64,000 nucleotides of DNA from Minisyncoccota bacterium. GTDB lineage: Bacteria > Patescibacteriota > Minisyncoccia > Phycocordibacterales > CAIZLB01. The position numbers were made by a program, and so were the translations under genes. The DNA lies in assembly GCA_021734945.1 (NCBI GenBank), contig JAIPIA010000001.1, positions 308,415 to 372,414 of the forward strand. The letters run 5' to 3'. Under the pieces are notes generated by a model that saw nothing but the letters and a program-made list of their open reading frames with translations, was not told the origin of the DNA and did no database searches. Shown piece after piece: positions 948 through 46,788 of this stretch (positions within the stretch are counted from its first letter, which is position 1; the number at the start of each line of letters is the position of its first letter).

Positions 948-1475
948 TCAAACTTTAAAGCCAATCTTATTCTTTGGCTTTTTATCCTCTTTTATAAGTA
1001 AGCGAATTACTCGGAAAATTTCTCTAAAATTTGTTTCATTATTCTTTTCCATTTCCTCGACTTTTTCACGGAGCTCTTTGTAGGTATCAACCATTCTTCG
1101 TAGTTTTGTAAATATACGTATTATCTGGATATTGATTTGAATGGCACGTTGACTATTTAAGACACTTGAAAGCATTGCAATTCCCTGTTCTGTGAAAGCT
1201 AGAGGCTCAATTCTAAGCCCTAATTTTAACCTTGAATTGGAGGTCACAAATTGTGACCTCCAATTATCTAGTTCCTCCTTGGTAAATTTAAACATAAAAT
1301 CATCTGGAAATCTTTCAATATTTCTTTTAACAGACTGTTTTAACACCTTAGTAGATGTTCCATATAGGACAGCAAGATCCATATCTAACATCACCTTACC
1401 ACCTCTTATTAAGTAAATCCTTTCTTTAATCGTCTCTATATCTATTGCCGTTTCGATTTGTTTTTCTTTTTCCAT
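948..1475 (-). CDS. ORF6N-domain protein (phage antirepressor/KilA-N-like DNA-binding family)
   Basis: N-terminal segment IRGGKVMLDMDLAVLYGTSTKVLKQSVKRN..FPDDFMF..T..E matches the ORF6N domain pattern. It is the last gene of the minus-strand cluster. Confidence 0.55.
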   Translation of the reverse strand: MEKEKQIETAIDIETIKERIYLIRGGKVMLDMDLAVLYGTSTKVLKQSVKRNIERFPDDFMFKFTKEELDNWRSQFVTSNSRLKLGLRIEPLAFTEQGIAMLSSVLNSQRAIQINIQIIRIFTKLRRMVDTYKELREKVEEMEKNNETNFREIFRVIRLLIKEDKKPKNKIGFKV

Positions 1476-1552
1476 TTTCAGATACTAGCAAAAGTTCCCT
1501 TAAGGAATCTTAAAGAAATTATAAAGAACATTCCAATAATTTATTATTGCTC

Positions 1553-2197
1553 TTACATCTCATACCCTTCAAGCTCCTTAGCAACCTGCTCAACTTTTTT
1601 AATGTCAATTTCATTTAGAGAGATATTACACACTTCCTGAATCTGCTTTTCCAGCACTAGAGCAAGCTGTTTTTTCTTTTCAGTTTTTTCTACATCAGCA
1701 AGCGCGTGCTGACTACCCGCATATCTTCGAATAACCTCATCAAATCGCTCTTCCACAGATACAATTCCTGTAGGAGCAACTCTAAAATCTGAATACGAAC
1801 AAAGTTTTATATACAAATCATCTAAATCTACCGTCAGGTGAAGTCTTGAACTACCAATATTCTCTAGAATATATAGTACTTTTTCAGGAACATTCAATTC
1901 ATGAGCAATTGCCATTGTGACCGTATGTTCGTTATCTCCATATGATTTGATAAATTCCTCAACTCTTCGCAATTCCTTTCTCTCTTCTTCTGTATATAAA
2001 ACATCGTTTGCAATTGGAGACTTAATAATATTGCCCATATCATGAAGCAACATGGCTTTTGTAACTAAATCTATATCTAGTTGAATCTCATGTTTTAATG
2101 ATTGAACAAGAATTCGTGCAACTGCAGCCACGCGATACATGTGATTTCTGAGGACACTTGGTATCTGATATTTTGCGTATATTTCGGAGGTTTTCAT
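1553..2197 (-). CDS. HD-domain phosphohydrolase (YfbR-like)
   Basis: HD motif LLHDMGN with an upstream H (RNHMYRVAAVARIL). It starts 5 bp after the upstream gene stop, so it is probably operonic. Confidence 0.6.
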   Translation of the reverse strand: MKTSEIYAKYQIPSVLRNHMYRVAAVARILVQSLKHEIQLDIDLVTKAMLLHDMGNIIKSPIANDVLYTEEERKELRRVEEFIKSYGDNEHTVTMAIAHELNVPEKVLYILENIGSSRLHLTVDLDDLYIKLCSYSDFRVAPTGIVSVEERFDEVIRRYAGSQHALADVEKTEKKKQLALVLEKQIQEVCNISLNEIDIKKVEQVAKELEGYEM

Positions 2198-2202
2198 GGG
2201 TT

Positions 2203-2745
2203 TTAATTAAATTTGAAAAACTTTTTAACACTCCAGACTTCATTCTCAAATTTCATTAAAGCTATATTATCAAAAAATGATTCAAAATGTTGTAATTCTT
2301 TCGTTTGTAAATATGCAAATATTTCATCTGACTGACTCTGATTCATATGTCGAGCAATAGATATGTGAAATATCCGTTTTGCGAATTTTCTATCCTCATC
2401 AACTTCTCCCAGATCAGAAATACAGCCTTCAATAGTTTTCTCAAATATTGAGCCTCCTTCAACTTTCATGAAAATTGTCTCAAAACTGTTTTCAAAACGA
2501 TTAAAACCACTAATAATAAAAGGTGCAATACTCGTTTTTCTTAGACTAAAATCATTAACAACAGATTGAATTTTTGACTCAATTTCCATAGTATCATCAA
2601 CTTCAAAGGGATACTTTAAAGTAATATGAGCAGGAACTCTTTTTGATAAATTGGAAATACCAAACTGAGCACTCAATTCTTCTGTTAGTTTTTGGAAATA
2701 TTTTTGAACTTCCTCGTTTGCTATATAGGCGATACAGTGTCTCAT
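2203..2745 (-). CDS. 2H phosphoesterase superfamily protein (LigT / 2'-5' RNA ligase / cyclic phosphodiesterase-like)
   Basis: Two H-x-T/S motifs (AHITLKYPF and HISIARH) at the spacing typical of 2H enzymes. Confidence 0.6.
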   Translation of the reverse strand: MRHCIAYIANEEVQKYFQKLTEELSAQFGISNLSKRVPAHITLKYPFEVDDTMEIESKIQSVVNDFSLRKTSIAPFIISGFNRFENSFETIFMKVEGGSIFEKTIEGCISDLGEVDEDRKFAKRIFHISIARHMNQSQSDEIFAYLQTKELQHFESFFDNIALMKFENEVWSVKKFFKFN

Positions 2746-2754
2746 ATTGCTGGA

Positions 2755-3324
2755 CTAATTATACAAATTAATCTTCCTCAACATCAACTCTGGCTTCCCT
2801 GCATTCTGTTCTTCACCTAGGCTAATACCGAGAGTTTTAATAAAGTTTCTAATTCCCTCTTTTACTTCGAGCACTTTATCATCTGATACTTGTTCGAGTT
2901 TTTCTACTTCTAAAAATAATCCAAGGTCTTTAACATCTTCGAGAACTATTTCATATACATCAGTGAGGTACGTGTATTTTGTATTATCAATTCTAACCAG
3001 CTCTTCAAAGCCTAAATGTTGTTGAATTTGCAAAGCGGTGTCGAAGTTATCTATTCCTGTTTCGTATTCGTCTGAGTATGTCCAATTCATTGAGTCATCG
3101 AAGTGATCTACTTTGTAAGCAACTGTGGCTTTGCCGTCTTTAAGTCTGAATCGATAGCAGTTGGTTAGGCGACCGCTTTCGTCAGGTCGAAGTTCTGTTC
3201 GAAGCGGATTATTAAAATATACATCGAGTGTCTCTTTGGCACCCTTGAATTCAAATTGACCAAGGAGTTTTAAGGCTTCTTCTTTAGTGTTTTTTACTTC
3301 AATGAGGATTTCAATTTCTTTCAT
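2755..3324 (-). CDS. CYTH-domain protein (triphosphate tunnel metalloenzyme / class IV adenylyl cyclase-like)
   Basis: N-terminal EIEILIEV (the ExExK-like motif) and an acidic LEVE/EVEKLE C-terminal motif. Size ~190 aa is typical of CyaB/CYTH. Confidence 0.55.
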   Translation of the reverse strand: MKEIEILIEVKNTKEEALKLLGQFEFKGAKETLDVYFNNPLRTELRPDESGRLTNCYRFRLKDGKATVAYKVDHFDDSMNWTYSDEYETGIDNFDTALQIQQHLGFEELVRIDNTKYTYLTDVYEIVLEDVKDLGLFLEVEKLEQVSDDKVLEVKEGIRNFIKTLGISLGEEQNAGKPELMLRKINLYN

Positions 3325-3365
3325 TGGAATATTTTATATCTTATCATCTAAAAGTCTTTACACAG

Positions 3366-4751
3366 CTAATCTTTTAAAAAATAATTATTTATTTCATTAA
3401 AAATTTCTATAATTCTCGCTTCATATTTCGTTTTTATATTTTTACCACTGGTATCAATTAATCCACTGACACCGTCTCTATGTTTAACTTCAGGTTTATC
3501 TCTAATATCGTTAGTGGGGATACATACAAAATTATATTTAGGAAATTCCTTACTGAGCGAACATGCTAAACTAGACATATTATTATCTAGTATGGATGTA
3601 ATTTTTTTAAAACCTAAATCTTCAAGCATTTTAATTACTTTTCGTGTATTTGGGGCACCTCCAACGCCCCACCCATAAAATACTCCATTAGTCTGAATTT
3701 GTTTTATTTCAAGAATCTTATTTAAAAAGACAACGTCTTCTTGTCCTTCTGTTAAGATTATATTATCTTCAAGAAAGAAAATTTCACTAGCATCCAAACC
3801 GAGAATATGTGGATTATTTAAGTTATCTAAAAAAGGAGTAATATCATTAGTGGTTTTTTCTTCTAATTGATAAATTTTTGTTCCAGAAGTCTCTTTAACT
3901 GTTCTTGCAATTCGTCCACCGTTTAAAATTGAAGGCCAACTGACAAAAAAAGGAGAATGAGTAGAGATTATGATTTGTCTATCTTTTGAATATTCTAAAA
4001 GTAATTTTAATAATTTTCTTTGGAGTGACGGATGTAACGACAACTCTGGCTCGTCAATAAATATTAAGTCTTCAGATCGACTATCATACAAAGCATCAAC
4101 AATTGTAAAAACACTCAATAATCCTTCTCCGGCCCCGTCGCTATTATGAGAAGAATTATCATTAATAAACTTTAAATAATAATTTCCATTATCTGCCTGA
4201 TCAATGTTCCAGTTCGGAGAGTATCCTAAAACTTTACTCAATTCCGAATTAAAAGTTGTTGGATCTTTTTGGATTTGGAAAAGTCTATGTGAAAAATTAT
4301 CAAACTGTGAACCTCTAACTGCTTGTAGATTTGAAGTGCTAATATATTGGTTACGATCATAAATACTTTTACCAAAAAATGGGCTGAATGTTCTTCTTGA
4401 TGGTAAAGTTAAGAATTTTACTTTCTCTTTTTCAAGTTTATTTGAAATATACTCTGTTTCGCTTCCTCCATTAGATGTTGTTTTAAGAGTTAAGCTATTA
4501 TCGTCTATGTCGAAAATTGATATTTCAATTTTATCACCAGCTATTTTATTTCTTTTACCTTCCGTAAAGCTCGGGGTTTGATTTTGGGATATAGCTCTGA
4601 ATGCCTCATAAATTGTTGATTTACCGGAGTTATTAGGGCCAACAATAACTGTCAATCCACTACCATTATTTCCATTTTTTGGTACAGCAATATTTAACGT
4701 TTGCTTTTCATTAAAACCTCTTAAGCCTAAAATTTCTATTTTTTTGTACAT
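3366..4751 (-). CDS. OLD-family ATP-dependent endonuclease-like protein (N-terminal ABC-type ATPase + C-terminal Toprim-like region; GajA/OLD-like)
   Basis: Walker A GPNNSGKST, Walker B/D-loop LIFIDEPELSLHP, H-loop ISTHSP, then an acidic ILTEGQEDVVFL Toprim-like segment. The likely start is MYKKIEIL (4751); the longest ORF reaches 4787. Confidence 0.6.
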   Translation of the reverse strand: MYKKIEILGLRGFNEKQTLNIAVPKNGNNGSGLTVIVGPNNSGKSTIYEAFRAISQNQTPSFTEGKRNKIAGDKIEISIFDIDDNSLTLKTTSNGGSETEYISNKLEKEKVKFLTLPSRRTFSPFFGKSIYDRNQYISTSNLQAVRGSQFDNFSHRLFQIQKDPTTFNSELSKVLGYSPNWNIDQADNGNYYLKFINDNSSHNSDGAGEGLLSVFTIVDALYDSRSEDLIFIDEPELSLHPSLQRKLLKLLLEYSKDRQIIISTHSPFFVSWPSILNGGRIARTVKETSGTKIYQLEEKTTNDITPFLDNLNNPHILGLDASEIFFLEDNIILTEGQEDVVFLNKILEIKQIQTNGVFYGWGVGGAPNTRKVIKMLEDLGFKKITSILDNNMSSLACSLSKEFPKYNFVCIPTNDIRDKPEVKHRDGVSGLIDTSGKNIKTKYEARIIEIFNEINNYFLKD

Positions 4752-4803
4752 AGCGTATACAACGAGCGTACGAGTCCTATGTAGCATTCGTACTAGCTCT
4801 TGT

Positions 4804-6643: not shown

Positions 6644-7477
6644 CTACACCAAATCAAGCACCTGCGGGTTTTTCAACCTTATTAGTGCTGGCAATTCAGT
6701 CAGTTCTTCTCCAGGTGGCTGCCAGAGATTGAACTTAGCGAATCTTTGATTTGAACCGACGTCGATTTGAAGCGTATGGGCGCCATATTTTTCACGAAGA
6801 AAATGACCAGCGGATAGATATGCAGGGCCGTCCTCGTCGTAAAAAAGACGTCTGTGTGCAGTATCATCATCAGTATGCATCACCTTAGCAAAGAATGGTT
6901 TAAGGACTTTAAACAATTCATCAGGATCGTTGAATGGCAAATCCGAGCGACCTTTAAAATCCTCACTCTTGAGTAAACAACGACCTGTTTCGATCATGCG
7001 TTGCCACTTCTGAATCAACTCAGCACCGACCAGCTTTTCAGCTTTAAAGTTTGGAGGTAAATCAGGATTCCTGGTAAATACTCTCTGAATTTCGCATACT
7101 GACTGACTCATGCACGCTTGTGCTTTCTCAAGCGGAATATCCAGGAACCCAACGCTCTCTTGGTCAAAGAGCAAAGACCTGAAGTGGACTTTTGAGTGGT
7201 AACGAATATTTTTGCGAAGAAACTTTTTAAGCATCACAAACAGATTAATAGAGCGCTGCGCTGTTAAGCTCACGCCCGACAAAAGCTGTTTACAATCCTC
7301 ACTGTACTGAGGACAGACAATGACGGCGACAGAAAATTCTCCCGTCGCATCGTAGTGAGATACTGCACGCCAGAGTATTTCGATGATATATTCATTGTCT
7401 TCGTGTGTTGCAACGATTTGTGTAAAGAACTTATGGAGCATGCTCCCGAGTGGATGTTCGAGCAATTTACTTTTCAT
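6644..7477 (-). CDS. Hypothetical protein with no family recognised; noticeably higher GC than its neighbours
   Basis: Long ORF whose composition departs from the surrounding genes. Confidence 0.45.
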   Translation of the reverse strand: MKSKLLEHPLGSMLHKFFTQIVATHEDNEYIIEILWRAVSHYDATGEFSVAVIVCPQYSEDCKQLLSGVSLTAQRSINLFVMLKKFLRKNIRYHSKVHFRSLLFDQESVGFLDIPLEKAQACMSQSVCEIQRVFTRNPDLPPNFKAEKLVGAELIQKWQRMIETGRCLLKSEDFKGRSDLPFNDPDELFKVLKPFFAKVMHTDDDTAHRRLFYDEDGPAYLSAGHFLREKYGAHTLQIDVGSNQRFAKFNLWQPPGEELTELPALIRLKNPQVLDLV

Positions 7478-10202: not shown

Positions 10203-10268
10203 ATGAGTGCCATAGTAGCATTTTATTTGAGTGGTTTCAACCCTAAACTTTTATATACATGTACCAAG

Positions 10269-10340
10269 TATCCTTTGTATATCCCTTATGTATCCCTTAT
10301 GTATCCGTTGTGTATCCTTTAGATACTTGATACATGTAGA
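10269..10340. repeat. Five tandem 11-bp units (TATCCNTTNTG; TATCC at 10269/10280/10291/10302/10313) ending in GATACTTGATACATGTA
   Basis: Exact 11-bp phasing read from the sequence. The same terminal 18-mer recurs at 24045-24062. Confidence 0.7.
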
Positions 10341-10384
10341 CCATTATTTCATGAGAGTCACTCACAAAAACTACTACAATATGC

Positions 10385-13419: not shown

Positions 13420-13899
13420 TTAAATGAGCTGTAACTGCTTTGCTTTCGGCTCTTCAAAGTCTGGTTCCCAACTGTAATTTCCAGTCCCTGGAATTACCCA
13501 GCTTGACCCCAATGGAATCCCGAGACTTCGAAGTGTACTACGCAAAGTCCTGACTCTCGCATATCCCATACCAGAATATTTCCTTACATGTTCTCCGCCA
13601 CTTTCGAGCACCTCACCAATTGTAGTCAAACCATAGCGCAAAAGCGCGCTGCGGATATTATTCCCATCCTCCATCTGAAGGGACTCGAGTGTTCTGATGC
13701 GGAGTTTGGCAAGTTCTGCTTTCTTCAGTTTACGTGGCGGTTTTGAACCTGGTTCAAACTGTTCACCGACAGCACCTACATGAATCGTAACTTTGAGAGA
13801 AACGGTAGCATCGGCCGCCACTATGTTTTGGGCCCGCAACCACACCAACACCATTGCGTTGAATGCCTTTGACTGTTCTTCGTCTAATTTTATTTTCAT
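13420..13899 (-). CDS. Hypothetical protein with a C-terminal RNA polymerase alpha-CTD-like helix-hairpin-helix region; GC-rich ORF
   Basis: IGEVLESGG..RKYSGMGYARVRTLRSTLRSLGIPLG resembles the alpha-CTD fold pattern. GC is clearly above the neighbours. Confidence 0.4.
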   Translation of the reverse strand: MKIKLDEEQSKAFNAMVLVWLRAQNIVAADATVSLKVTIHVGAVGEQFEPGSKPPRKLKKAELAKLRIRTLESLQMEDGNNIRSALLRYGLTTIGEVLESGGEHVRKYSGMGYARVRTLRSTLRSLGIPLGSSWVIPGTGNYSWEPDFEEPKAKQLQLI

Positions 13900-14103: not shown

Positions 14104-15546
14104 TTATTTTCCAATAACCTCAACAAGAGTCTTTAAAAGACTTCTAACATCCCCCATCGTTGTAAATCTTCCAAGTGTGATTCGCAGAGAACTTTTTCCA
14201 CAATTTTTAGAACTATTATTTGTGTCCTCGCCTCCATTATTACTTGCTTCATCATTTTTCTTTACACCAGTACTCAAAGCCTCAACAACATATGAAGTTG
14301 AATCTTCATTTTTAGATCGACAACTTGTTACCGAAGAAACACATACTCCACGAACATCAAGACGCAGTACCGCGTATTCTGCATCCATTCCCTCCACACA
14401 CATATTTAAATTATTTGGAACACGCAATGCATTTCCATAATGATCATTTTCATAAGTACCATTAAAAATTATTTTTGGAATTTTTTCAGCACTTTCGGCC
14501 TTTTTTATTTCATCAACCAAAAAATCTCGCATCTTACCCAGTCGAGCAGATTCTTTATCTTTTTCAGCAATCGCCAAATCCATGGCATACGCAAATCCTG
14601 AAATACCTGCAACATTCTCAGTTCCCGCTCGAAGATCATTTTCCTGACTACCCCCTATTTGTATAGACGAAATAGACTTTGATTGAATAACACTTCTCTT
14701 TATATATAGAGCACCAACACTTCTCGGACCATAAAACTTTGCACTATCAAGCGTCATCATATCCACGCCAAGTGTAGGAATACGAAGTGAACAAAAAAGT
14801 ACTGCCTGACATGCGTCTGTATGAACGAGCGGATAAATTGAAGAATACGTCATTGGTTTCTCGTTTTTTTCAACAACTAATTCTAGTTTTGCTTTTTTGT
14901 AATGCCGTACAATTTTAGAAATTTCAGAAATTGGCTGAATTGTTCCAATCTCATTATTCACATACATAATAGAAACCAAAATAGTTTCTGGACGAAGTGC
15001 TTTTTTCAATTCTTTTAAATCCACAATTCCATCCGAACCGACTGGAATAAAAGTAACATCACACTCACCTGATTCTTGATATTGGAGCAAAAGCTCTCGC
15101 ACAGCCGGATGCTCTATAACAGACGAGATAATATGAGGCCTTATTTGAGAACTTAGAGACCCAACACTCATCTTGTTTGTGTCATCTCCCTTTTCTACCT
15201 TATCTACCTTTTGTAAATTTGCTCTATAAGCTTTCAAAACACCTTGTATTGCAAGATTATTTGACTCTGTACCTCCTGATGTAAAGACTATCTCATCAGC
15301 ATGAGATTCAAGATGTTTAGCAACCTTAGCCCGAGCCTGTTCGAGCTGCTTAAAAGATTCAACTCCCTCTCTATATAGTGAGCTTGGGTTTGCCGGATAT
15401 TCTTTAGAAATTTTTGATACAAATTTTATAACCCGCTCATCTACTGGCGTCATTGAGGTGTAATCAAGATATATTCTCATTTGATTGTTTTTTAGACTCA
15501 AATTTTGACTTAATTTCTGGCCGAACTTAGAAAAGAAACTGTTCAT
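14104..15546 (-). CDS. Cysteine desulfurase (class V aminotransferase, IscS/NifS family) with insertions
   Basis: Blocks YLDYTSMTP, FTSGGTESNNLAI, HTDACQA and SAKFYGP (PLP lysine); 480 aa. Confidence 0.7.
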   Translation of the reverse strand: MNSFFSKFGQKLSQNLSLKNNQMRIYLDYTSMTPVDERVIKFVSKISKEYPANPSSLYREGVESFKQLEQARAKVAKHLESHADEIVFTSGGTESNNLAIQGVLKAYRANLQKVDKVEKGDDTNKMSVGSLSSQIRPHIISSVIEHPAVRELLLQYQESGECDVTFIPVGSDGIVDLKELKKALRPETILVSIMYVNNEIGTIQPISEISKIVRHYKKAKLELVVEKNEKPMTYSSIYPLVHTDACQAVLFCSLRIPTLGVDMMTLDSAKFYGPRSVGALYIKRSVIQSKSISSIQIGGSQENDLRAGTENVAGISGFAYAMDLAIAEKDKESARLGKMRDFLVDEIKKAESAEKIPKIIFNGTYENDHYGNALRVPNNLNMCVEGMDAEYAVLRLDVRGVCVSSVTSCRSKNEDSTSYVVEALSTGVKKNDEASNNGGEDTNNSSKNCGKSSLRITLGRFTTMGDVRSLLKTLVEVIGK

Positions 15547-15590
15547 AATTTAACTATACAAAAAAGTATTGACTCTGTATACTTTTACAC

Positions 15591-16100
15591 ATGAATTTAG
15601 CATCTGTTGTACAAATCCCTGGACTTGGTCAAACATCTCTCGAATTACTTATTATTATATTACTAGTCCTCATTTGCTTAATACTATTTGGTCTTGTTAT
15701 CCAAGCCCACCGCCGAATCACAAAAATGCTTCGTGGAAATAACACAATGACTATAGAGGAATCTATCATTGAGCTTGCAAAAGAACTTGATACTCTCACT
15801 GACTTCAAGGAAAAAGCTGAGGTATATCACAAGCTTGTAGAACAGCGTCTCCGAAAGTCTGTACAGTCTATTGAAACAAAACGATTCAATCCATTCAAAG
15901 GTTCAGGTGCTGGAGGAAACCAAAGTTTCGCATCTGCTTTTATAAATGAAAATGGTGATGGTCTTATTCTCTCAAGTCTCTACTCTAGTGATCGAATGAG
16001 TGTTTTTGCAAAGCCAGTACAAGGATTTGCTTCATCTTTTGAACTTACAGAGGAAGAAGCATCTGCACTTGAAGACGCACAGAAGAGGGTTATTCTTTAG
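15591..16100 (+). CDS. Membrane-anchored hypothetical protein (DUF4446-like)
   Basis: N-terminal TM helix, then a coiled region and a G-rich FNPFKGSGAGGNQSF block. Confidence 0.35.
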   Translation: MNLASVVQIPGLGQTSLELLIIILLVLICLILFGLVIQAHRRITKMLRGNNTMTIEESIIELAKELDTLTDFKEKAEVYHKLVEQRLRKSVQSIETKRFNPFKGSGAGGNQSFASAFINENGDGLILSSLYSSDRMSVFAKPVQGFASSFELTEEEASALEDAQKRVIL

Positions 16101-16259
16101 GTTTTGCAGTATCAATTTTATAGCAGATGGATTTTATAGGTAGTTTTTGTGTATCCCAAAATTTCAAAAAAGAAAAAACACCGACTTTCGACGGGTTTTC
16201 TCCGTTGAAGCGGTGCTTAGATTTGAGTTGATAGTCATAACAGTTAGTCACGACATTTA

Positions 16260-16784
16260 TCACTCTGCGGCAGGTGGATCTGGAACTTGGTCCTCGAGTT
16301 CACGAATACGTCCCGTGATAATGTCTAGGATGTGTGGCCAGCTCAACGCAGCCTCAGTATAGCTCGACAAAGAATAACTTTTAGCCCAGTCACACTGCTC
16401 TGCATCTCCATCCCATACAAAATGTGTGACACTGAATGCTCTTTTCCCAAAGCAAAAGAAGTATGAGTTTCCTATATTAAAGTCTGAGAACATACTTCCT
16501 GGAGGCGCAATGTTTATCATGACAACAAAAGCGATTTCTTCTGGTTTTGGCCAGTCGAGAATTTTATAGTCATCTTCCAACATTTTCTCTACTCGCAATT
16601 TTTCCGCAGCATTCCTGTAGAACTGACCAAAAGCATCATCTCTGGGACGGATAAGATAGACCCTTTCAGACAACCCATTAAAAAAGGCAATCCATCTCTC
16701 CATTTTTTTCAAGTCTACACTCGGAATGACAATCTGCACCGACGGTGGTTCCGGAACAAGCTCCTTATCATTTTTTTGTGACAT
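16260..16784 (-). CDS. Hypothetical protein; GC-rich ORF
   Basis: ORF only; composition is atypical. Confidence 0.4.
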   Translation of the reverse strand: MSQKNDKELVPEPPSVQIVIPSVDLKKMERWIAFFNGLSERVYLIRPRDDAFGQFYRNAAEKLRVEKMLEDDYKILDWPKPEEIAFVVMINIAPPGSMFSDFNIGNSYFFCFGKRAFSVTHFVWDGDAEQCDWAKSYSLSSYTEAALSWPHILDIITGRIRELEDQVPDPPAAE

Positions 16785-16943
16785 TTGTTTAGGTCTTTCA
16801 ATTTTTGGTTTTTGTGGTTTTTTATGAATTTAAGTCAAACAACGATTTGAGCATCATAGTATTCTTAAGTATAGAAATGTAAAGAAAACCACACTGTATG
16901 GACTCCATGCAACAGTTAACGTCACGGAGAAACTACCTAAAAC

Positions 16944-17043
16944 AAAAGACCCCCTTCGGGGCCTTTTTGCGCATTATTTTAATGAATTTGACTGTTATTT
17001 CTTTGCTGGTTTAGCTTTCTTGGCAACCTTAGCTTTCTTTACC
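16944..17043. repeat. Ghost copy of the rpmF 3' end plus terminator (direct repeat of 17907-17984)
   Basis: A 47-bp identical core, ATTTCTTTGCTGGTTTAGCTTTCTTGGCAACCTTAGCTTTCTTTAC, plus a shared hairpin AAGACCCCTTCGGGGCCTTTT. Confidence 0.7.
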
Positions 17044-17140
17044 TTTTATAGTTTCCACCTTTAAATACATAATCAGCATAAATATTTTAATACAGGTAGC
17101 AATCTTAAGCCCCTGGCAGTATTGCGTCTGCTACCAAATA

Positions 17141-17803
17141 ATGGTAAAAATCTCCTGGAACCCAAACAAAAAGCTTAGTATGACACACGCATCAAACACG
17201 GTACTTAATCCCAAAGAGAATGTTGATGCTGTTGAAGCATTGACGCAGCGGTTTATTGATGGCGATGTAGAAGCCTTTACTGAACTGTATCAAAAAGTTA
17301 GGGGTATCCTGATTTCACATATCAGGCAGATCTTTCGCGGAGCATATGAAGAAGACATCTTTTCTGAAGCAATGGATGCTGCATGGAGGAAAAGACATAC
17401 CTACAATCAGAGAAAAGGCAAACTAGTTTTTTGGCTGACATCAATTGCCAGAAAAAAAGCCATCGATTTCCTGCGAAGGGTCGACGCGAGAGAAAGAATG
17501 TTAGACAGGTACAAAACAGCGTTAAGTTCAGATCCATCAAACAGGATCCATCACGAGGATACTGGAATTCGTCACCTCTTCCAAGAGGAGGAAGGGCAAA
17601 GAATCTTGGAAATCATGAAGAGACACCTTACTGAGGTCCAGGTCCAGGTGATGACTCTTCATTGGATTGCAAGAAAGTCGCAGAGGACAATCTCGGACGA
17701 ACAGAATATTCCACTCGGAACGGTGAAAGATCGCCTAAAATCAGGACTTGGTAATCTGATTCGACACGTCCAAAGGGAACCCTTCTACAAAGACCGCAGC
17801 TGA
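17141..17803 (+). CDS. ECF-type RNA polymerase sigma factor (sigma-70 regions 2 and 4)
   Basis: Region 2 (FTELYQK..DIFSEAMDAAWRKRHTY..FWLTSIARKKAIDFLRR) and region 4 HTH (LTEVQVQVMTLHWIARKSQRTISDEQNIPLGTVKDRLKSG). The true start may be downstream (MTHAS at ~17180). Confidence 0.7.
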   Translation: MVKISWNPNKKLSMTHASNTVLNPKENVDAVEALTQRFIDGDVEAFTELYQKVRGILISHIRQIFRGAYEEDIFSEAMDAAWRKRHTYNQRKGKLVFWLTSIARKKAIDFLRRVDARERMLDRYKTALSSDPSNRIHHEDTGIRHLFQEEEGQRILEIMKRHLTEVQVQVMTLHWIARKSQRTISDEQNIPLGTVKDRLKSGLGNLIRHVQREPFYKDRS

Positions 17804-17937
17804 AGCCATAAGGCAGAGGAAAACCTCTTGCCGGCTCACAGCAGGCGGTTTTTCTTTTGTCTAATTTTATACAAAAATCAAAGGCTATAAACATATGCAA
17901 GTAATGAAAAAGACCCCTTTCGGGGCCTTTTAATTGA

Positions 17938-18198
17938 CTATTTCTTTGCTGGTTTAGCTTTCTTGGCAACCTTAGCTTTCTTTACTTTAGCTTTTGGTTC
18001 CTTCTTAGCAGTTTTGGGTAGTTTCTCTTTTTTAGCAAGAGCGTTCTTACCTTTGTAGAGTCCACATGCAGAACATGCAATGTGCTTTAGTTTAGGCTGT
18101 CCGCAGTTTACGCAAAGAATGAAACCAACACCCTTAAGAGCGTGGTGGCTTCGTCGGTTTCGAGTGTGACCTCGAGTATGTCGCATGTGATTTACCAT
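17938..18198 (-). CDS. rpmF: 50S ribosomal protein L32 with a Lys/Ala-rich C-terminal tail
   Basis: HTRGHTRNRRSHHALK ... C.NCG.PKL.H..C.ACG; C-terminal tail AKKEKLPKTAKKEPKAKVKKAKVAKKAKPAKK. Confidence 0.8.
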   Translation of the reverse strand: MVNHMRHTRGHTRNRRSHHALKGVGFILCVNCGQPKLKHIACSACGLYKGKNALAKKEKLPKTAKKEPKAKVKKAKVAKKAKPAKK

Positions 18199-18409
18199 AG
18201 TTCCTAAAGTATACTTATTTTTCTAATTTTGGCAAACGTCATATATCCACTTTGGTCATTTTGGCCGTCTAGTCTCTTTAAATTACCTGAAGTTTTTATA
18301 AAAATATTTACTAAGATTATGTATGAAAATTGAAAACCGCCTTGGTGGTGGCGGTCTCCTGAGTGGATCAGGTGTATAGTATATATGGTTGATGCACATA
18401 TTTAAACCA

Positions 18410-18703
18410 CTAACGTTTGAAAACATGATTAAGTCTCAGACTAAGCCAGACTTTCAAAAATTTGAGGGATTTAGGCATCCAAAAATTGGCCTCGACATTC
18501 CTAACTTGAATACCTTTGATATCTTGCCGTTGAAGCTCTTGATACTCAGCCAAAACTGCAGCTGAAACATCATTACGGAGGAGACTCATGCCTGTAAAGT
18601 ACTCAGGGTGTTCCATACGATATGTATACACTCTCTCCCCCTCACCAGGACTCCGCTCGTACCAAACAGCAGGTCTCCGATTAGACACAGACAAAATTTT
18701 CAT
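18410..18703 (-). CDS. Hypothetical protein (97 aa) followed by a hairpin terminator
   Basis: ORF plus downstream hairpin ACCGCCACCACCAAGGCGGTTTTC. Confidence 0.35.
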   Translation of the reverse strand: MKILSVSNRRPAVWYERSPGEGERVYTYRMEHPEYFTGMSLLRNDVSAAVLAEYQELQRQDIKGIQVRNVEANFWMPKSLKFLKVWLSLRLNHVFKR

Positions 18704-18841
18704 GATTTAAAATTCTTAAAAGGTTCCAAAATCTTGATCATCCTGGAAACAGCACGGGTTTCAGGCAAGATTAATCTTATGTTATATGAACCTATTATTT
18801 AGTCAATTTTGTATAATTTAGATTTTATTTTTATCTTAATT

Positions 18842-19681
18842 TTACTTACTATTTAAAATATTTTTACAGAAACTTCTTCTATGTTCATCCGACAAACCAA
18901 ACTTTTTCAATGCAAGCCTATGTTTAAGAGTTCCATACCCTTTGTGCACATCAAATTCATATACTGAATATTTAGTATTTTTTGATAACTTTTTCATACG
19001 AGCATCTCGATTAACTTTGGCATAGACTGAGGCAAGTGATATTACGAGCTCTTTTTCATCACCTTTTATAATAGTTTTTTGTGAACCTACAGGAAGTTCA
19101 GTTTTTAATCCCCCATCGAGTAAAACATTCAATTGTTCGAAAGATACTCTCAGCGCCGATAAAGACTCTTCTGAAGATACCTGTTCCACTTGTTTAGAAA
19201 TTTTTGATATTTTCTTTAAGTTTTTATTTACCAGGTCTTTTATACAAACAGCAATTCCCTTTTTATCAATTTCTTCTGCCGACGCACTACTTGTACATGC
19301 ATACAAAAATACTTCATTCACAAGTTTTTGAACTACTTTATACCAAAATTCTCGATCAGATTCTTTCATCTTTTTTGAATCAACTCCGATTGGGTATTCT
19401 TTTTTTACTCCTCCATTTAGCTCACCTGAAGTTCCCATCAATTTTTCTCGAAGATTTGCATAAGTTCGAGCAACACTACCATCAATTAAAAATGCAACAG
19501 CTCCCACAGTTACAGGCCCAGCAAGTGGACCACGACCAACTTCATCTATTCCAACCAACCATTTTTTGCATTCCATAAAATCTGCAGATTTTATGGAATT
19601 TACTACGCTTCCATCGGACTTTGAGAGCGTCTTGGATTTATCCCCAGTTTTGTGATTTTTGGTTTTTTTCATAAAAGTCAT
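18842..19681 (-). CDS. rnhB: Ribonuclease HII with N-terminal extension and internal insertion
   Basis: GIDEVGRGPLAGPVTVGAV, DSKK, SLASVYAKVNRD, HKGYGT..H. Likely start MKKTKNHK (~19672). Confidence 0.75.
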   Translation of the reverse strand: MTFMKKTKNHKTGDKSKTLSKSDGSVVNSIKSADFMECKKWLVGIDEVGRGPLAGPVTVGAVAFLIDGSVARTYANLREKLMGTSGELNGGVKKEYPIGVDSKKMKESDREFWYKVVQKLVNEVFLYACTSSASAEEIDKKGIAVCIKDLVNKNLKKISKISKQVEQVSSEESLSALRVSFEQLNVLLDGGLKTELPVGSQKTIIKGDEKELVISLASVYAKVNRDARMKKLSKNTKYSVYEFDVHKGYGTLKHRLALKKFGLSDEHRRSFCKNILNSK

Positions 19682-19702
19682 AAAAAATGTATACTTAAGT
19701 AT

Positions 19703-23894: not shown

Positions 23895-23992
23895 TGTTGT
23901 CTTTATAGTTGGTCTCATATTTAATATTTAGTCTTGAAGTTAGTTTTAAATTTGATTAAATATGTTTTTAAATATCTTTTGCATATATCAAA

Positions 23993-24120
23993 TATCCAAC
24001 GTGTATCCCTTTTATACTGTTTATGTATCCATAGTGTATCTATTGGATACTTGATACATATACATCAATACTCATTACCTTGATACACATAACTTGATAC
24101 ACACAACTTGATACACCCGC
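23993..24120. repeat. Second TGTATCC repeat array: 11-bp-phased units at 23993/24004/24026/24037, the 18-mer GGATACTTGATACATATA, then three tandem AACTTGATACAC units
   Basis: Read directly. It shares the terminal 18-mer with array 10269-10340 and is flanked by AT-rich DNA (23920-23990 and 24120-24300). Confidence 0.7.
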
Positions 24121-26217: not shown

Positions 26218-26754
26218 TCAGAACCTACTGTCCGGGTCATATTGATCAAAAGCCCTGATTGACACGCGATGACGGAGGCATTCTGCCCGCCACCTCCAGA
26301 ACTTATCCGGAGGGAGTTTTGTCAAATTCCCAGCCGTGTCAACGACCCAGAATAGGCCATTAGGATGCTCTGCAGTACGCCGAGTATCCAACCTGGCGTT
26401 ATAGCCCTCGCGAGGTATTGGCGGCGTCACATGTTTTGACTGAGACCTAATAGGTCTCTGGCTAACTTGCGGTGCATTGACCGTTGCCAAAGATGTTCTC
26501 GGCTTCGGCTGAACACTCCTTTGAACCTGAGGCTGCTGGGCTGCAACTGGTTGCGGGTAGCTGTACGTAGGCGCTGGATTGGGCGCCGGGTACTGGTTGT
26601 AGTACAAGATCTCTGGAGGAACCCTATATAGACGTCCATCAAGACCTTTGTAAACACCGACCTGACATGACGTCAAGCAAAGAGCAAGCGCGCACATGAT
26701 AAGGGTTGTACGACCCGCCAGAAATGATGGCGCATTGGAAGCTGTGTGCTTCAT
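26218..26754 (-). CDS. Pro/Gln-rich predicted lipoprotein; markedly GC-rich ORF (visual estimate ~50%+)
   Basis: Signal peptide with lipobox LTSCQ and a proline-rich repeat region. Its composition is very different from the flanking genes. Confidence 0.5.
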   Translation of the reverse strand: MKHTASNAPSFLAGRTTLIMCALALCLTSCQVGVYKGLDGRLYRVPPEILYYNQYPAPNPAPTYSYPQPVAAQQPQVQRSVQPKPRTSLATVNAPQVSQRPIRSQSKHVTPPIPREGYNARLDTRRTAEHPNGLFWVVDTAGNLTKLPPDKFWRWRAECLRHRVSIRAFDQYDPDSRF

Positions 26755-31303: not shown

Positions 31304-31678
31304 CTATCTCTGCTGGAAGTACCCAGCTGCGTTTGGAAGCTGAGGAGCTGCAGGAGCTGTGTTGTCCAAGTTCACACTTCTAACCAAAATATTTACCAAT
31401 CCCCATACAGATACCATTACGAAGAGTGCAACAACACCCCAAATAATATATCCCTGTGCTTCTTTTCGAGCTTCACCATCACCACCAGCAATAACAAATT
31501 TGAAAATACCCCAAAGGAAGATCAATACTGTAAGAGCAATGATGAATGGGATAAGTCTGTTGATGAGGTCGTTTGCCTGAGCCAAAAGTCCGAGTAAACC
31601 TCCAATAGTCTGTGCTCCAGCAATAGCAGGAGTTATGAGTACCAAAAGTGCAGAAAGTTTTAGAAATGTCTTTTTCAT
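31304..31678 (-). CDS. Paralogue 2: signal peptide plus two TM helices with conserved C-terminal block WGVVALFVMVSVWGLVNIL
   Basis: Near-identical nucleotide stretch CCAATCCCCATACAGATACCATTACGAAGAG shared with paralogues 3 and 4. Confidence 0.5.
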   Translation of the reverse strand: MKKTFLKLSALLVLITPAIAGAQTIGGLLGLLAQANDLINRLIPFIIALTVLIFLWGIFKFVIAGGDGEARKEAQGYIIWGVVALFVMVSVWGLVNILVRSVNLDNTAPAAPQLPNAAGYFQQR

Positions 31679-31783
31679 CTTTTAATAACGAATTATAATT
31701 TTATTAAGAGACTTCTTTTTAAAAAGTCGTACTCTAATTATACTTTGTTTTAGCGTTTGAAGATAGCAGGCTGTGGATTGCTT

Positions 31784-32074
31784 CTATCGAACTGGTATCA
31801 ATTGTTCAAGATTTTGAGGAGTTGAGTTGTTCAAATGTAACGATGTTACCAAAATATTTACTAATCCCCATACTGAGACCATTACGAAGAGTGCAACGAT
31901 ACCCCATGTAATATACCCTCGAGCCTCCTCTCTTGCTGCACCATCTGAGCTTGTAACCATTCTAAAAATTCCCCAAATGAACACGAGAACTGTCATAGCA
32001 ATGATAAGAGGCATCACCACGTTTATAAGTTCTTTTATCATCTGTATTATTGCGAATATTCCTGTAGCTCCCAT
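31784..32074 (-). CDS. Paralogue 3 (WGIVALFVMVSVWGLVNIL)
   Basis: Same motif and nucleotide-level conservation as paralogue 2. Confidence 0.5.
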   Translation of the reverse strand: MGATGIFAIIQMIKELINVVMPLIIAMTVLVFIWGIFRMVTSSDGAAREEARGYITWGIVALFVMVSVWGLVNILVTSLHLNNSTPQNLEQLIPVR

Positions 32075-32092
32075 ATATTTATATTATTTAAA

Positions 32093-32449
32093 TTATCTTA
32101 ATTGCGGAATAACTAAGCCTCCTCCGAAAAAAGTGGATGTAAGTATACTTACCAATCCCCATACAGATACCATTACGAAGAGAGAGACGACACCGTACGT
32201 AATAACACCAATCGCCTCTTTTCGGGCATCTTCACTATTACTTCGTACAAGCTGAAAAATTCCCCAGATAAAATAAAGCAGGGTAAGGCCGACGATGAGA
32301 GGTACAAGGGTTTTAATCATACCTATAAATAGTCCCACCAATGAACCAAAGTCATACGCTACCTGACCATAAGCCTGCGTCTGCAAGGGAAAAGTAATAA
32401 GAAGCAGAGCCGCTGCGCTTATAATTTTTTTAGATGATGAAAATTTCAT
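32093..32449 (-). CDS. Paralogue 4 (signal peptide; YGVVSLFVMVSVWGLVSIL)
   Basis: Same family. Confidence 0.5.
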   Translation of the reverse strand: MKFSSSKKIISAAALLLITFPLQTQAYGQVAYDFGSLVGLFIGMIKTLVPLIVGLTLLYFIWGIFQLVRSNSEDARKEAIGVITYGVVSLFVMVSVWGLVSILTSTFFGGGLVIPQLR

Positions 32450-32469
32450 ATGTGTATTTATGTTTTCTA

Positions 32470-32811
32470 TTATATACCTAATTCGTTAACTGTTGCTTGT
32501 ATTGCCGTTGCAATAACTCGAGCTCCCAATACAATAGCTCCTCCAACAATAGTCCATGTCAACGTCTGGTGAGCTGAACTAATCTGCTTTTCGTCCCCTC
32601 TTGCAGTAACATATTTGAAACCAGCAAGAATAAGGAAAAATACAACAACAATAGCACCTAGCAAAATAACAACATCAAGTACTTGAAGCAGGAAGCCATC
32701 TAACGTGCTTGCCTGAATAGGGTTAGTGAAATACTGCTGAGCACTAAGTAAGGTTGGAAGGAGCGTAAAACCAGATGCTAGAAACGTAGTAGTAATTTTT
32801 TTAATATTCAT
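32470..32811 (-). CDS. Paralogue 5 (signal peptide, two TM helices, ARGDEKQ loop)
   Basis: Same architecture. The start is set at MNIKKITTTF; the longest ORF would overlap paralogue 6. Confidence 0.4.
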   Translation of the reverse strand: MNIKKITTTFLASGFTLLPTLLSAQQYFTNPIQASTLDGFLLQVLDVVILLGAIVVVFFLILAGFKYVTARGDEKQISSAHQTLTWTIVGGAIVLGARVIATAIQATVNELGI

Positions 32812-32876
32812 AGCTGTAATTATATAATAGATTTTAATCTTCACAAACTTTTCACTAGTAGCCAAAAGATGAATTC

Positions 32877-33308
32877 CTAGCGCAGCAGACTGTATGCATT
32901 GTCTACTCCCAAAAACTTCAACATGGTTGCCACGAGCAACCAAGCTGCCATAGTGAAAAATATACCTTTTATCACATTACCAAAGATGCCGTTTGCAGTT
33001 TTACGTGCCCCAGTATCATCTCCAGACGTCATATAGAGATACCCTGCATATACCATTGAAACAACAGCCGCCATTGCAGCAAGGTAAATAGCATTTTGGA
33101 GGATATTTTGACCCATTTTCATCAACTGTGGCCATCCACATGCTACTGTCACTTGACCATTAGCACCTTGTACAGGCTTTCCATAACATTCATCTGGGAC
33201 AAACGATACCAACCCAGCAGCGTCAACTACAACCGGTGAAATAAAAGCACTTAATACTGTAAGTATTGTAAAGACTTGCAGTATGAGTAATTTAATTGTT
33301 TTTTTCAT
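32877..33308 (-). CDS. Paralogue 6 (signal peptide, Cys-containing ectodomain, two TM helices, SGDDTGARK loop)
   Basis: Same architecture. Confidence 0.4.
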   Translation of the reverse strand: MKKTIKLLILQVFTILTVLSAFISPVVVDAAGLVSFVPDECYGKPVQGANGQVTVACGWPQLMKMGQNILQNAIYLAAMAAVVSMVYAGYLYMTSGDDTGARKTANGIFGNVIKGIFFTMAAWLLVATMLKFLGVDNAYSLLR

Positions 33309-46140: not shown

Positions 46141-46788
46141 TCAAAACCAAGGTGATTGAGGAAAGTGGACACTTGCCATACGAGACCGGAGGATCAGAGT
46201 TCTGCCGACTGGAATATGAGTGATGTTTTCATCCTTTTTATCCAGCATAACAATCCACTTTCCGTTTCCAACACTCGGCGACGAAGCAAGACAACGACCG
46301 AGACAACCGTCATTACGCATGACAGGAATCACGTTTTCACCACCCAACAGAGCAAAAGGTTGATTTGTGTCCCTTTTGATAGGATTCAACCTACTCAAAA
46401 GAGCAATGAGAACGTGCCGAGGAAGAGCATTCTCGTGACTAACACAGTCATTGAAAACACTGATTGGAATCGGCTTATTCACAAGCCTCTTCTTGATAAT
46501 CAACTGATCAAGCACCCGCTCAGGACGTTGATGAGAAAAAGCATCAATGGCGATTTTTGACAAAGTAGAATTGCCAATGGATTCGCTCATCTTCTGCGTA
46601 GCAAGCCCGTCGTCCATGGAGAAAAACATCGGATCTTCGCTGAGATAGGAACCTGCTGGGAGCAAGCCCTCTTCACAGAGAAGCTCAAATGGATTCAACA
46701 TGAAAGTCTGAGTGACGATTGTTGGATGAAGGAAACGCTCAAGTTCTGAGAAACTTCCTCTGTTGTTGTGTAAAAGTTCAATTGGCAT
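46141..46788 (-). CDS. Hypothetical protein; GC-rich ORF
   Basis: ORF only. Confidence 0.4.
   Translation of the reverse strand: MPIELLHNNRGSFSELERFLHPTIVTQTFMLNPFELLCEEGLLPAGSYLSEDPMFFSMDDGLATQKMSESIGNSTLSKIAIDAFSHQRPERVLDQLIIKKRLVNKPIPISVFNDCVSHENALPRHVLIALLSRLNPIKRDTNQPFALLGGENVIPVMRNDGCLGRCLASSPSVGNGKWIVMLDKKDENITHIPVGRTLILRSRMASVHFPQSPWF

Follow-up and report, generated by a model that had tools for sequence, protein, structure and literature searches.

A displaced rpmF 3′ end beside a gained ECF sigma factor gene in a Patescibacteria genome

In the genome of a Minisyncoccota bacterium, a segment of about 0.94 kb bearing a single gene, for an ECF-type sigma factor, has been inserted at the 3′ end of rpmF, the gene for ribosomal protein L32, so that the end of rpmF now occurs on both sides of it. 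Comparison with related genomes indicates that the copy attached to no gene, called the ghost below, is the original end of rpmF left in place, and that the end now attached to rpmF was imported with the sigma segment. On balance, the locus is probably the scar of a 3′-end displacement: rpmF would have served as the anchor for recombination with DNA of a related lineage, in which a homologous exchange was combined with an illegitimate join. Such a scar is an ordinary trace of horizontal gene gain, a known kind of event that calls for no new mechanism. The analysis covered a stretch of 64,000 nucleotides, referred to as the 64-kb window, in which the locus is composed as follows.

16260..16784, minus strand: ORF174, ancestral downstream neighbour of rpmF, whose promoter region follows the ghost terminator
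16944..16968, minus strand: ghost terminator, interpreted as the ancestral rpmF intrinsic terminator (GGCCCC-GAAG-GGGGTC plus T-run), bidirectional in form
16969..16994, minus strand: ghost spacer of 26 nt between stop codon and terminator, interpreted as the ancestral rpmF 3′ UTR
16995..17042, minus strand: ghost rpmF 3′ end, TAA plus the last 15 codons (VKKAKVAKKAKPAKK), joined to no ORF; 16996-17042 is repeat R
17043..17179, plus strand: left end of the insert, AT-rich upstream region of the sigma gene; rpmF homology stops at the junction 17042/17043
17180..17803, plus strand: ECF-type sigma-70 family gene, 207 aa (NCBI MCF7865186.1), with Pfam and NCBIfam matches
17811..17862, plus strand: hairpin belonging to the sigma gene, with a T-run after it, probably its terminator (-24.6 kcal/mol, z = -3.15)
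17907..17937, minus strand: terminator (GGCCCC-GAAA-GGGGTC plus T-run) and 6-nt spacer, interpreted as imported
17938..18198, minus strand: rpmF, ribosomal protein L32, 86 aa, TAG stop (PF01783, 48.9 bits); 17939-17985, the final 47 nt of the gene, form the second copy of R

The duplicated part of the gene, R, is an exact repeat of 47 nt (16996-17042 = 17939-17985), which grows to 50 nt when one mismatch is allowed and comprises the last 15 codons of rpmF with two bases of the stop codon. The hairpin AAAAGACCCC(C/T)TTCGGGGCCTTTT is likewise present twice, at about 16944-16968 and 17907-17931, with 23 of 24 bases identical. With up to three mismatches, each of the two patterns has exactly two matches in the 64-kb window and none in 100 shuffled sequences. 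The part between stop codon and hairpin differs: TAA and a 26-nt spacer are found in the ghost, TAG and a 6-nt spacer in the real copy. The folding energies of the two hairpins are -16.4 kcal/mol (z = -3.05) for the ghost terminator and -16.1 kcal/mol (z = -4.31) for the imported one, which now serves rpmF and also faces the convergent sigma gene. An Rfam scan of 15500-19700 with E values up to 1 gave no RNA match. The ghost cannot be translated, since a stop codon lies in frame two codons ahead of VKK and a start codon is lacking; it is thereby ruled out as a small ORF. Scans of the whole window for direct repeats at two sensitivities found no further ghost gene end, so that a recurrent feature of the genome is ruled out for these 64 kb. 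Thus the earlier note, which had described the rpmF tail and its terminator as recurring in a copy without a gene, was right on this point. The sequence of the imported junction is AAGAAATAGTCAATTAAAAGGCCCCGAAAGGGGTCTTTTTCATTACTTGC.

The inserted unit, 943 nt of sigma gene and rpmF tail with terminator, includes a sigma unit of 0.86 kb. Its only gene has the architecture of an ECF (group 4) sigma factor: 207 aa, with matches to regions 2 and 4 alone and none to regions 1.1 or 3. Within the 220-aa ORF 17141-17803, residues 49-114 match region 2 (PF04542, 38.3 bits, cut-off 24), and the whole protein matches TIGR02937 (sigma70-ECF) with 67.2 bits against 42.9; the latter match also covers region 4, for which PF04545 alone gives 22.7 bits, slightly below its cut-off of 24.1. 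Promoter-like sites are predicted by a promoter scan upstream of the gene, at 17045-17073 and 17113-17142. A co-transcribed cognate anti-sigma factor is typical of the ECF group but not obligatory; here the sigma gene, which has the ghost on one side and the rpmF terminator on the other, is monocistronic, and there is no adjacent co-directional anti-sigma gene. ORF174 is ruled out as the partner, as the related locus L003 has ORF174 without a sigma gene. The sigma gene is richer in GC than its surroundings, as had been noted before (GC 44.2% and GC3 44.7%; the averages over ORFs are 38.6% and 31.0%), and this atypical composition counts for insertion of foreign DNA. Six other ORFs of the window that lack Pfam matches are likewise GC3-rich. 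The protein is a singleton in a database of 5.8e9 proteins; its best distant relative is 35% identical and lies on an unrelated contig of 2.5 kb.

Insertion is evident from the related genomes. At about 120 related rpmF loci, no sigma ORF was found by tblastn or by profile HMM, and 17043..17179 has no DNA similarity to these loci. The site is empty in L003 (rpmF-ORF174-like-DUF4446), in L116 (rpmF-81 nt-DUF4446) and in L117-L124 (rpmF-124 nt-DUF4446), and L002 has a 52-aa ORF between rpmF and DUF4446. The order in the closest relatives is accordingly rpmF-terminator-DUF4446 or rpmF-terminator-ORF174-DUF4446. In L002, L003, L116 and L117 the rpmF terminator has the form GNCCCC-GAAA-GGGGNC, typical of the clade, which the imported hairpin fits. 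The orthologous position of this terminator in relatives, together with its mere two occurrences in 64 kb, excludes a dispersed terminator family. The earlier note had proposed that a segment of about 0.9 kb was integrated at the 3′ end of rpmF, had recommended a search for empty sites in relatives, and had named two findings that would speak against it: relatives that all carry the sigma gene without repeats, and repeats that belong to a widespread terminator family. Empty sites were found, neither of the two adverse findings was made, and integration is borne out. The repeat ends directly after the T-run of the terminator, the point where all relatives diverge, which fits a slot behind a conserved anchor with gene content varying from lineage to lineage. 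ORF174 belongs to this variable content. In L003 a homologue with 49% identity takes the corresponding position. ORF174 is present in some relatives and absent from others, matches no family and is a singleton in a search of 5.8 billion proteins; it is a fast-evolving accessory gene.

Which of the two ends is the original one? The TAA stop is shared by the ghost, L003, L116 and L117. About 19 of the 26 nucleotides of the ghost spacer are identical to the rpmF 3′ UTR of L003 (...ATTCATT.AAA.AA.GCG...; counted by hand on the alignment), and the tail of the ghost terminator, GTTTT(A/G), is that of the rpmF terminators of L116 and L117. The intergenic region between ORF174 and the ghost aligns with L003, and the flank downstream of the ghost corresponds there to the promoter region of ORF174 (TTTACATT...GTTGTTTGACTT). 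The ghost thus agrees with the rpmF 3′ regions of relatives in stop codon, spacer, tail and flank, which marks it as the original end, while nothing in relatives corresponds to the tail of the real copy (CATTAC...). One motif, AGTCAA(A)TT, is common to the imported spacer and the ghost only, and this suggests a donor closer than any sampled relative. The previous proposal that the insertion regenerated the end of rpmF therefore stands with a refinement: it is the imported copy that now completes the gene, and the ancestral end is the one left behind.

The following course of events would account for these observations. The ancestral order, which relatives retain, was rpmF, TAA, a spacer of about 26-33 nt, the terminator, ORF174 where present, and DUF4446. 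DNA would have entered the cell, most plausibly by natural transformation, from a closely related lineage with a convergent ECF sigma gene in its variable slot behind rpmF; Saccharibacteria have been shown to be naturally competent, and conservation of com genes throughout CPR is reported (PMC10633639). Two steps anchored by homology in rpmF would suffice: a homologous exchange within the 47-nt stretch or upstream of it, and an illegitimate join of the far end of the foreign DNA (17043) to the recipient rpmF, 47 nt before its stop. Either homology-facilitated illegitimate recombination (HFIR) of a linear fragment or, with the fragment circularised, a single crossover of the Campbell type would lead to the final sequence. 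The imported tail with TAG, the 6-nt spacer and the terminator would then complete rpmF. Next to them would lie the sigma unit of 0.86 kb, which has a promoter region and a hairpin of its own, and the original tail would be left stranded upstream of ORF174 together with TAA, spacer and terminator. Several features expected of HFIR are found at the locus. A conserved anchor, rpmF, with 85-89% DNA identity to L002, L003 and L116, adjoins an insert without match; an orphaned rpmF 3′ fragment lies downstream, collinear with the ancestral flank (that of L003, and in stop and tail those of L116 and L117); and the proposed illegitimate joint would map to 17042/17043 within about 3 nt.

There is precedent for HFIR that leaves orphaned 3′ ends in the arrays of T6SS and Rhs genes (PMC5361080). 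In T6SS effector-immunity arrays, Rhs and CDI systems (Kirchberger et al., 2017, PMC5361080), a conserved upstream anchor receives an incoming 3′ part with one or more downstream genes, and the old 3′ end is pushed downstream as an orphan fragment without a recombinase; displacement of C-termini by HFIR has been proposed for them (also Jackson et al., 2009, as cited in PMC5361080). The rpmF locus differs in that the displaced and incoming ends encode the same peptide (47/47 nt) and the anchor gene is not diversified, in that the cargo is an opposite-strand ECF regulator instead of a toxin tip and immunity gene, and in that a single displacement, not an array, is seen, in a host belonging to the Patescibacteria. 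Laboratory HFIR in Acinetobacter, S. pneumoniae and P. stutzeri, as reported through PMC5361080, shares the one-sided homologous anchor and the illegitimate joint; there the donors are known and microhomologies have been mapped, whereas the present case is read from the recipient sequence alone.

Several points weigh against 3′-end displacement. HFIR is rare where it has been measured (PMC5361080). The donor or closer relatives did not turn up in GTDB genomes and JGI metagenomes scanned with L32, in searches of 5.8 billion proteins with the sigma factor, ORF174 and L32, or in a full HMMER scan of 1.84 billion representatives with the sigma factor, and the sigma protein is a singleton, as is the insert DNA. 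Moreover, the copies of R are identical at 47 of 47 positions, yet the 3′ UTRs differ by three indels, so that a very close donor or later homogenisation is needed; with a donor rpmF about 95% identical, the estimated probability of no change in R is about 0.1-0.3, only about 16 sites being synonymous. Finally, a long exact repeat that restores the 3′ end of a ribosomal protein gene is also the classic signature of tyrosine-integrase elements (PMC4701971).

This last point leads to the explanation that survives best among the alternatives, although it seems rather unlikely to us: site-specific integration at the 3′ end of rpmF of a small integrative element, or of a decayed CIME-like remnant, by a tyrosine or serine recombinase that has since been lost or whose gene lies elsewhere, with an attP that carried the replacement rpmF tail and terminator. 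The exact 47-nt direct repeat that restores rpmF, the compositionally foreign insert and the empty attB in L003, L116, L117-L124 and L002 speak for such integration. ICEs, IMEs and islands that insert into the 3′ ends of rpmG, rpsI and rplL (Ambroset et al., 2016, PMC4701971), or into tRNA and tmRNA genes, are similarly flanked by direct repeats (2-60 bp for the ribosomal protein targets of ICEs and IMEs; PMC4701971), keep their target intact by an element-borne 3′ end and have empty sites in related genomes. However, the insert encodes the sigma factor alone, lacking integrase, excisionase and transfer or mobilisation genes, and its 0.94 kb is far below the size of a self-sufficient integrative element (5-500 kb for ICEs, IMEs and islands). 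No integrase or transposase Pfam match was found in the insert, the flanking genes or any other ORF of 120 aa or more within the 64-kb window, and only one such repeat exists there. Neither a second copy nor a relative of the element was seen in protein databases, phages, plasmids or IMG/VR: tblastn of the sigma protein against phage records gave matches of 24-29% only, blastn of the 1.1-kb region against phages and plasmids gave none, and IMG/VR held no relative and no exact match to the R pattern, leaving a phage, plasmid or viral origin unsupported. The supposed attP arm, in addition, is not element-specific but resembles the rpmF UTR and terminator of a close relative, diverged homologues that look chromosomal. 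CIMEs, reportedly described by Pavlovic, Bellanger and colleagues, are said to be cis-mobilisable, att-flanked remnants of ICEs without recombination modules. They resemble the present locus as short segments bounded by att-like direct repeats and devoid of their own recombinase, but a CIME is defined by a cognate ICE using the same att site, and no such ICE or integrase was seen here. The earlier note had left open whether the route was site-specific or mediated by homology. Anchoring by homology has the better support, given the lack of a recombinase and of a second element copy and the relative-like imported UTR and terminator. The same note spoke of a cassette, which holds in the sense of an inserted segment; a dedicated mobile unit was not borne out. 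Nor does the insert resemble an integron cassette, as there is no integrase in the window and the flanking repeats are the rpmF tail and terminator, not attC.

Duplication in situ is improbable. It supposes that the sigma gene was inserted illegitimately with a target duplication of about 100 nt, or that a tandem duplication was followed by deletion, and that the UTRs diverged later. In its favour, the copies of R are identical, the UTRs resemble each other more than they do that of any relative and have AGTCAA(A)TT in common, and a single 3-nt deletion (TA[ACA]GTCAA) would turn TAA-CAG of the ghost into TAG of the real copy. Against this, four changes (three indels and one substitution) would have accumulated in about 55 nt of UTR and terminator and none in the neutral 47-nt R of the ghost, for which the probability is estimated at about 0.05, and the duplication would have to end by coincidence at the terminator T-run, where lineages diverge. 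The insert does not look like a transposon or IS: it has no transposase, no inverted repeats pair its ends, and the duplication amounts to 47-100 nt. To our knowledge, target duplications of about 100 nt are not typical of any transposition system.

We give little credence to the idea that the 943-nt unit is a mini-cassette without a recombinase, moved in trans to the rpmF 3′ end by a Paceibacteria recombinase or switching between integrated and excised states through the 47-nt repeats. If such switching did take place, the presence of the ECF sigma factor would vary within the population.

An assembly artefact or strain chimera, in which the repeat let the assembler thread a foreign sigma fragment or an excised circle into the rpmF locus, is very improbable. 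The k=31 Logan graphs do break the locus into three unitigs, and a path A-R-B with a separate S-R loop would fit them as well. However, two sequencing runs assembled independently (Logan) reproduce the structure. In one run (SRR12088350), the single contig L114 is 100% identical to 15803-17210 of the window; it runs from ORF174 through the ghost terminator and ghost R across the junction and reaches 168 nt into the insert, as far as the first part of the sigma gene. The contigs of SRR12088351 break at 17025, 17013-17968 and 17956, as expected of k=31 graphs at a 47-nt repeat. Junction k-mers (17013-17043 and 17938-17968) are present in reads, the repeat of 47-50 nt is shorter than ordinary Illumina reads, which should therefore span it, and the ghost tail is real sequence under either graph path. 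The right-hand junction, between sigma segment and rpmF body, is supported by the MAG assembly and graph-consistent breaks, without a second spanning contig. Searches for exact matches to L32 (86 aa and 82 aa) gave none, the Logan assemblies cutting the gene at the repeat. That the sigma gene is ancestral and was lost from all sampled relatives is hardly credible either, for all that the slot behind rpmF varies and ORF174 comes and goes, because loss makes no second rpmF tail and terminator, the ghost flank is collinear with the uninterrupted rpmF-ORF174 region of relatives, the gene has an atypical GC3 and no homologue above 35% identity, and at least four independent losses would be required.

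The locus, which we favour reading as a 3′-end displacement, shows at single-nucleotide resolution how the streamlined genome of an ultra-small CPR/Patescibacteria (Paceibacteria) bacterium can gain a transcription regulator. The gain took place in a variable slot directly behind a conserved ribosomal protein gene, probably with rpmF itself as the recombination anchor, and this essential gene stayed intact because a substitute 3′ end and terminator came in with the foreign DNA. A RecA-type deletion between the perfect 47-nt direct repeats would restore the ancestral locus exactly. The gained ECF sigma factor is an orphan, lacking an anti-sigma partner, and belongs to a lineage in which regulators are very few. 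Its gain agrees with the natural competence recently demonstrated for Patescibacteria. An orphaned gene tail with a duplicated terminator is a simple signature for such events in metagenome-assembled genomes.

In this window, rpmF is followed by a sigma factor gene and then by a second copy of its own 3′ end, the ghost copy. The features between and around the two copies are as follows.

18198..17938, minus strand: rpmF (ribosomal protein L32, 86 aa; PF01783)
17811-17862: hairpin and T-run of the sigma gene itself, from its hairpin fold
17180-17803, plus strand: ECF-type sigma factor gene, the sole gene between the copies, convergent with rpmF

The final 47 nt of rpmF (17939-17985), comprising 15 codons (VKKAKVAKKAKPAKK) and two bases of the stop codon, recur at 16996-17042 with zero mismatches, and the match grows to 50 nt with one mismatch. 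The G+C-rich rpmF hairpin at 17907-17931, flanked by A and T runs, has a second copy at 16944-16968 that matches it at 23 of 24 bases. On the rpmF strand both terminators fold strongly (real, -16.1 kcal/mol, z = -4.3; ghost, -16.4 kcal/mol, z = -3.1). Tail and hairpin motifs each have exactly two occurrences in the 64-kb window and none in shuffled sequence, and scanning the whole window for repeats at two sensitivity settings turned up no further comparable direct repeats. The ghost lacks a start codon, and two codons upstream its reading frame is closed by a stop; thus, it is a dead fragment. The earlier note, which described a recurring tail and terminator attached to no gene, was right on these points, and the alignment that it proposed reveals that the copies differ in the stop codon and in the length of the spacer before the hairpin (ghost, TAA and 26 nt; real copy, TAG and 6 nt).

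The product of the intervening gene exceeds the Pfam cut-off for Sigma70_r2 and scores 67 bits against TIGR02937 (cut-off 42.9), while no specific subfamily model reached its cut-off and no ECF subgroup could be assigned. Upstream, the gene has an AT-rich region of its own that contains promoter-like sites, and no anti-sigma gene adjoins it. Searches of protein databases and of phage, plasmid and viral-contig collections gave no relatives of the sigma unit, the closest sigma homologue being 35% identical; the NCBI record of the protein (MCF7865186.1) is from a 'Candidatus Pacebacteria/Paceibacterota' MAG on a 383-kb contig. As the earlier note had stated, the gene is GC-richer (GC 44.2%, GC3 44.7%) than the ORF means (38.6 and 31.0%). 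This composition is common to ORF174 (16260..16784, minus strand), the downstream neighbor of rpmF in the ancestral order, and to six other window ORFs lacking a Pfam family (6644-7477, 13420-13899, 26218-26754, 46141-46788, 50699-51181 and 56996-57853; GC3 0.44-0.58 vs. a mean of 0.31). Together the six make up a dispersed set of orphan genes with unusual composition, and by composition the sigma gene and ORF174 can be counted among them. An ORF at 62696-63538 encodes a PrsW-family intramembrane protease. The PrsW of Bacillus acts on the anti-sigma-W factor as its site-1 protease; a tie between this ORF and the orphan sigma factor would be pure speculation.

About 120 related rpmF loci were collected by an L32 scan of GTDB species representatives and JGI metagenomes and from contigs of the best protein hits. 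No sigma-like ORF came up in their fetched flanks, whether with tblastn or with an HMM profile of 60 distant ECF homologues. In the closest relatives (rpmF DNA 85-89% and DUF4446 protein 86-90% identical) the outer synteny, RNase HII - rpmF ... DUF4446 - cysteine desulfurase-like - ClpB, is kept and only the stretch from the rpmF terminator to DUF4446 differs, so that the interval behind rpmF is a variable slot.

Contents of the slot behind rpmF
L116: 778-858; empty, 81 nt
L117-L124: L117 5259-5382; empty, 124 nt
L002: 268-651; 52-aa membrane peptide
L003: 6253-7070; ORF174 homologue, 49% identical
Window: within 16101-18410; sigma gene and ORF174

By sequence comparison, L003 presents an exact 'empty site' with respect to the sigma segment, and L116 and L117-L124 have no genes between rpmF and DUF4446; integration of about 0.9 kb regenerating the rpmF end, as formerly claimed, is thus upheld. 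At the far end of the slot, L002 and L003 have a second conserved terminator (ACACCGACTCA...GGTGTTTTC), with a related one at 16179-16193 in the window. ORF97 (18410-18703), upstream of rpmF, is also fast-evolving (34% identity in L117-L124, absent from L116).

Which of the two ends is the original one can be judged from their surroundings.

The rpmF 3′ end (stop codon; spacer; sequence after the T-run)
Ghost: TAA; 26 nt; GTTTTAGG
L003: TAA; 33 nt; GTTGG
L116: TAA; 12 nt; GTTTTGAA
L117: TAA; about 14 nt by eye; GTTTTGCG
Real copy (on rpmF): TAG; 6 nt; CATTAC

The ghost spacer can be aligned with that of L003 (~19/26 identical by hand count) and its downstream flank with the ORF174 promoter region of L003 (TTTACATT ... 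GTTGTTTGACTT), while the DNA of relatives contains nothing that matches 17043-17906, the whole stretch to the left of the real terminator. The ghost is thus the original rpmF 3′ end, in its ancestral position before ORF174, and the tail now completing rpmF came in with the sigma gene. The imported hairpin is of the clade-typical rpmF terminator type (GNCCCC-GAAA-GGGGNC). The imported spacer has AGTCAA(A)TT in common with the ghost only, and TAA-CAG becomes TAG by one 3-nt deletion; this likeness to the ghost alone suggests a source rpmF locus closer to this genome than the sampled relatives. Just past the ghost terminator, the 17-mer GAGAAACTACCTAAAAC (16927-16943) matches rpmF codons EKLPKT (18011-18027) in reverse complement at 16 of 17 bases. 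Neither L003 nor L116 conserves it, and the ~43-nt stretch that contains it is missing from L003. At least one such pair was present in 12 of 200 Markov-shuffled 3-kb regions, so the pair is borderline and may reflect chance or a further rearrangement.

On the left, the duplicated block stops precisely where the terminator T-run ends; all lineages part ways at this point, since what fills the slot differs among them. On the right, it stops inside rpmF (17042/17043) at no recognizable feature. These boundaries and the missing recombinase are what would be expected if DNA of a related lineage had recombined at rpmF. A donor with the sigma gene in its slot behind rpmF would supply DNA that recombines using rpmF as homologous anchor, its far end being joined illegitimately 47 nt ahead of the recipient's stop codon, either by homology-facilitated illegitimate recombination or, equivalently, by a circularized fragment integrating via a single crossover within the 47 nt. 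An explanation along the same lines has been put forward for the orphaned 3′ ends of T6SS, Rhs and CDI arrays (PMC5361080), which the ghost rpmF end resembles. Saccharibacteria have been shown to undergo natural transformation, and conservation of com genes across CPR has been reported (PMC10633639). A tension for displacement is that the coding part is identical at 47/47 positions while the UTRs differ by three indels; since synonymous sites number only about 16 among the 47, this seems tolerable.

An element of the integrase type targeting the rpmF 3′ end, since decayed or mobilized in trans, is possible though unlikely. Exact direct repeats restoring a ribosomal protein gene are typical of such elements, which are known to target rpmG, rpsI and rplL (PMC4701971), but the other defining features tested, such as further copies, were not found: the insert, its neighbors and window ORFs of at least 120 aa gave no match to integrase, transposase or other recombinase families, and the insert has no terminal inverted repeats. 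Thus, of the site-specific and homology-mediated routes previously offered, the latter fits the boundaries and the related-type UTR. Less probable still is in situ duplication of a ~100-nt target with later divergence, which would need four changes in UTR and terminator and zero in the neutral ghost tail, and would make the block boundary a coincidence.

An assembly artifact is very improbable. Independent Logan assemblies of two runs (SRR12088350 and SRR12088351) agree with the window. Contigs L001, L113 and L115 of SRR12088351 end at 17025, 17013-17968 and 17956, the breaks forced on a k=31 de Bruijn graph by the 47-nt repeat; these ends lie exactly 30 nt into the repeat from either unique side, and such a unitig break pattern is a usable fingerprint for short exact repeats in Logan assemblies. 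A single SRR12088350 contig (L114) is 100% identical to 15803-17210. It thus runs from ORF174 through the ghost terminator and tail and across the junction to 168 nt into the insert, which contradicts an artifact and independently verifies the left junction. For the right junction the evidence is the MAG assembly together with graph consistency; misassembly there is unlikely, since the repeat is shorter than normal reads. That the sigma gene is ancestral and was lost repeatedly in relatives is equally hard to credit, as it leaves the second rpmF tail unexplained.

Elsewhere in the window, an intergenic element of 89 nt, built from short repeats that contain GTATCC (TGTATCCCTTATGTATCCC...), is present in two 75% identical copies (10258-10346, between clpB and tRNA-Tyr, and 23982-24070, between dnaE and thrS), which look like arrays of putative protein-binding sites. 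At 31304-33308, a cluster of three or four small paralogs with T4SS-pilin (PF18895/TrbC) domains accounts for a threefold 129-nt direct repeat (31352, 31817 and 32108). A defense-like or accessory cluster (948-4787) includes ORF6N, HD domain, 2′-5′ RNA ligase, CYTH and AAA_21/AbiEii-type ATPase genes, and a lone PemK/MazF-type toxin lies at 59639-60043.

The observation in the earlier note is confirmed and its interpretation supported and sharpened in polarity, the ghost being the original end. The event is a well-resolved case, in a Patescibacteria genome, of a known kind, 3′-end displacement or insertion regenerating the target end, and not a new mechanism. The L32 protein is unaltered by the insertion. 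The imported terminator, predicted to be bidirectional, would serve rpmF and back up the sigma gene's own hairpin, and the stranded ghost terminator is predicted still to insulate the ORF174 promoter. The perfect 47-nt repeats would permit a precise pop-out restoring the ancestral locus.
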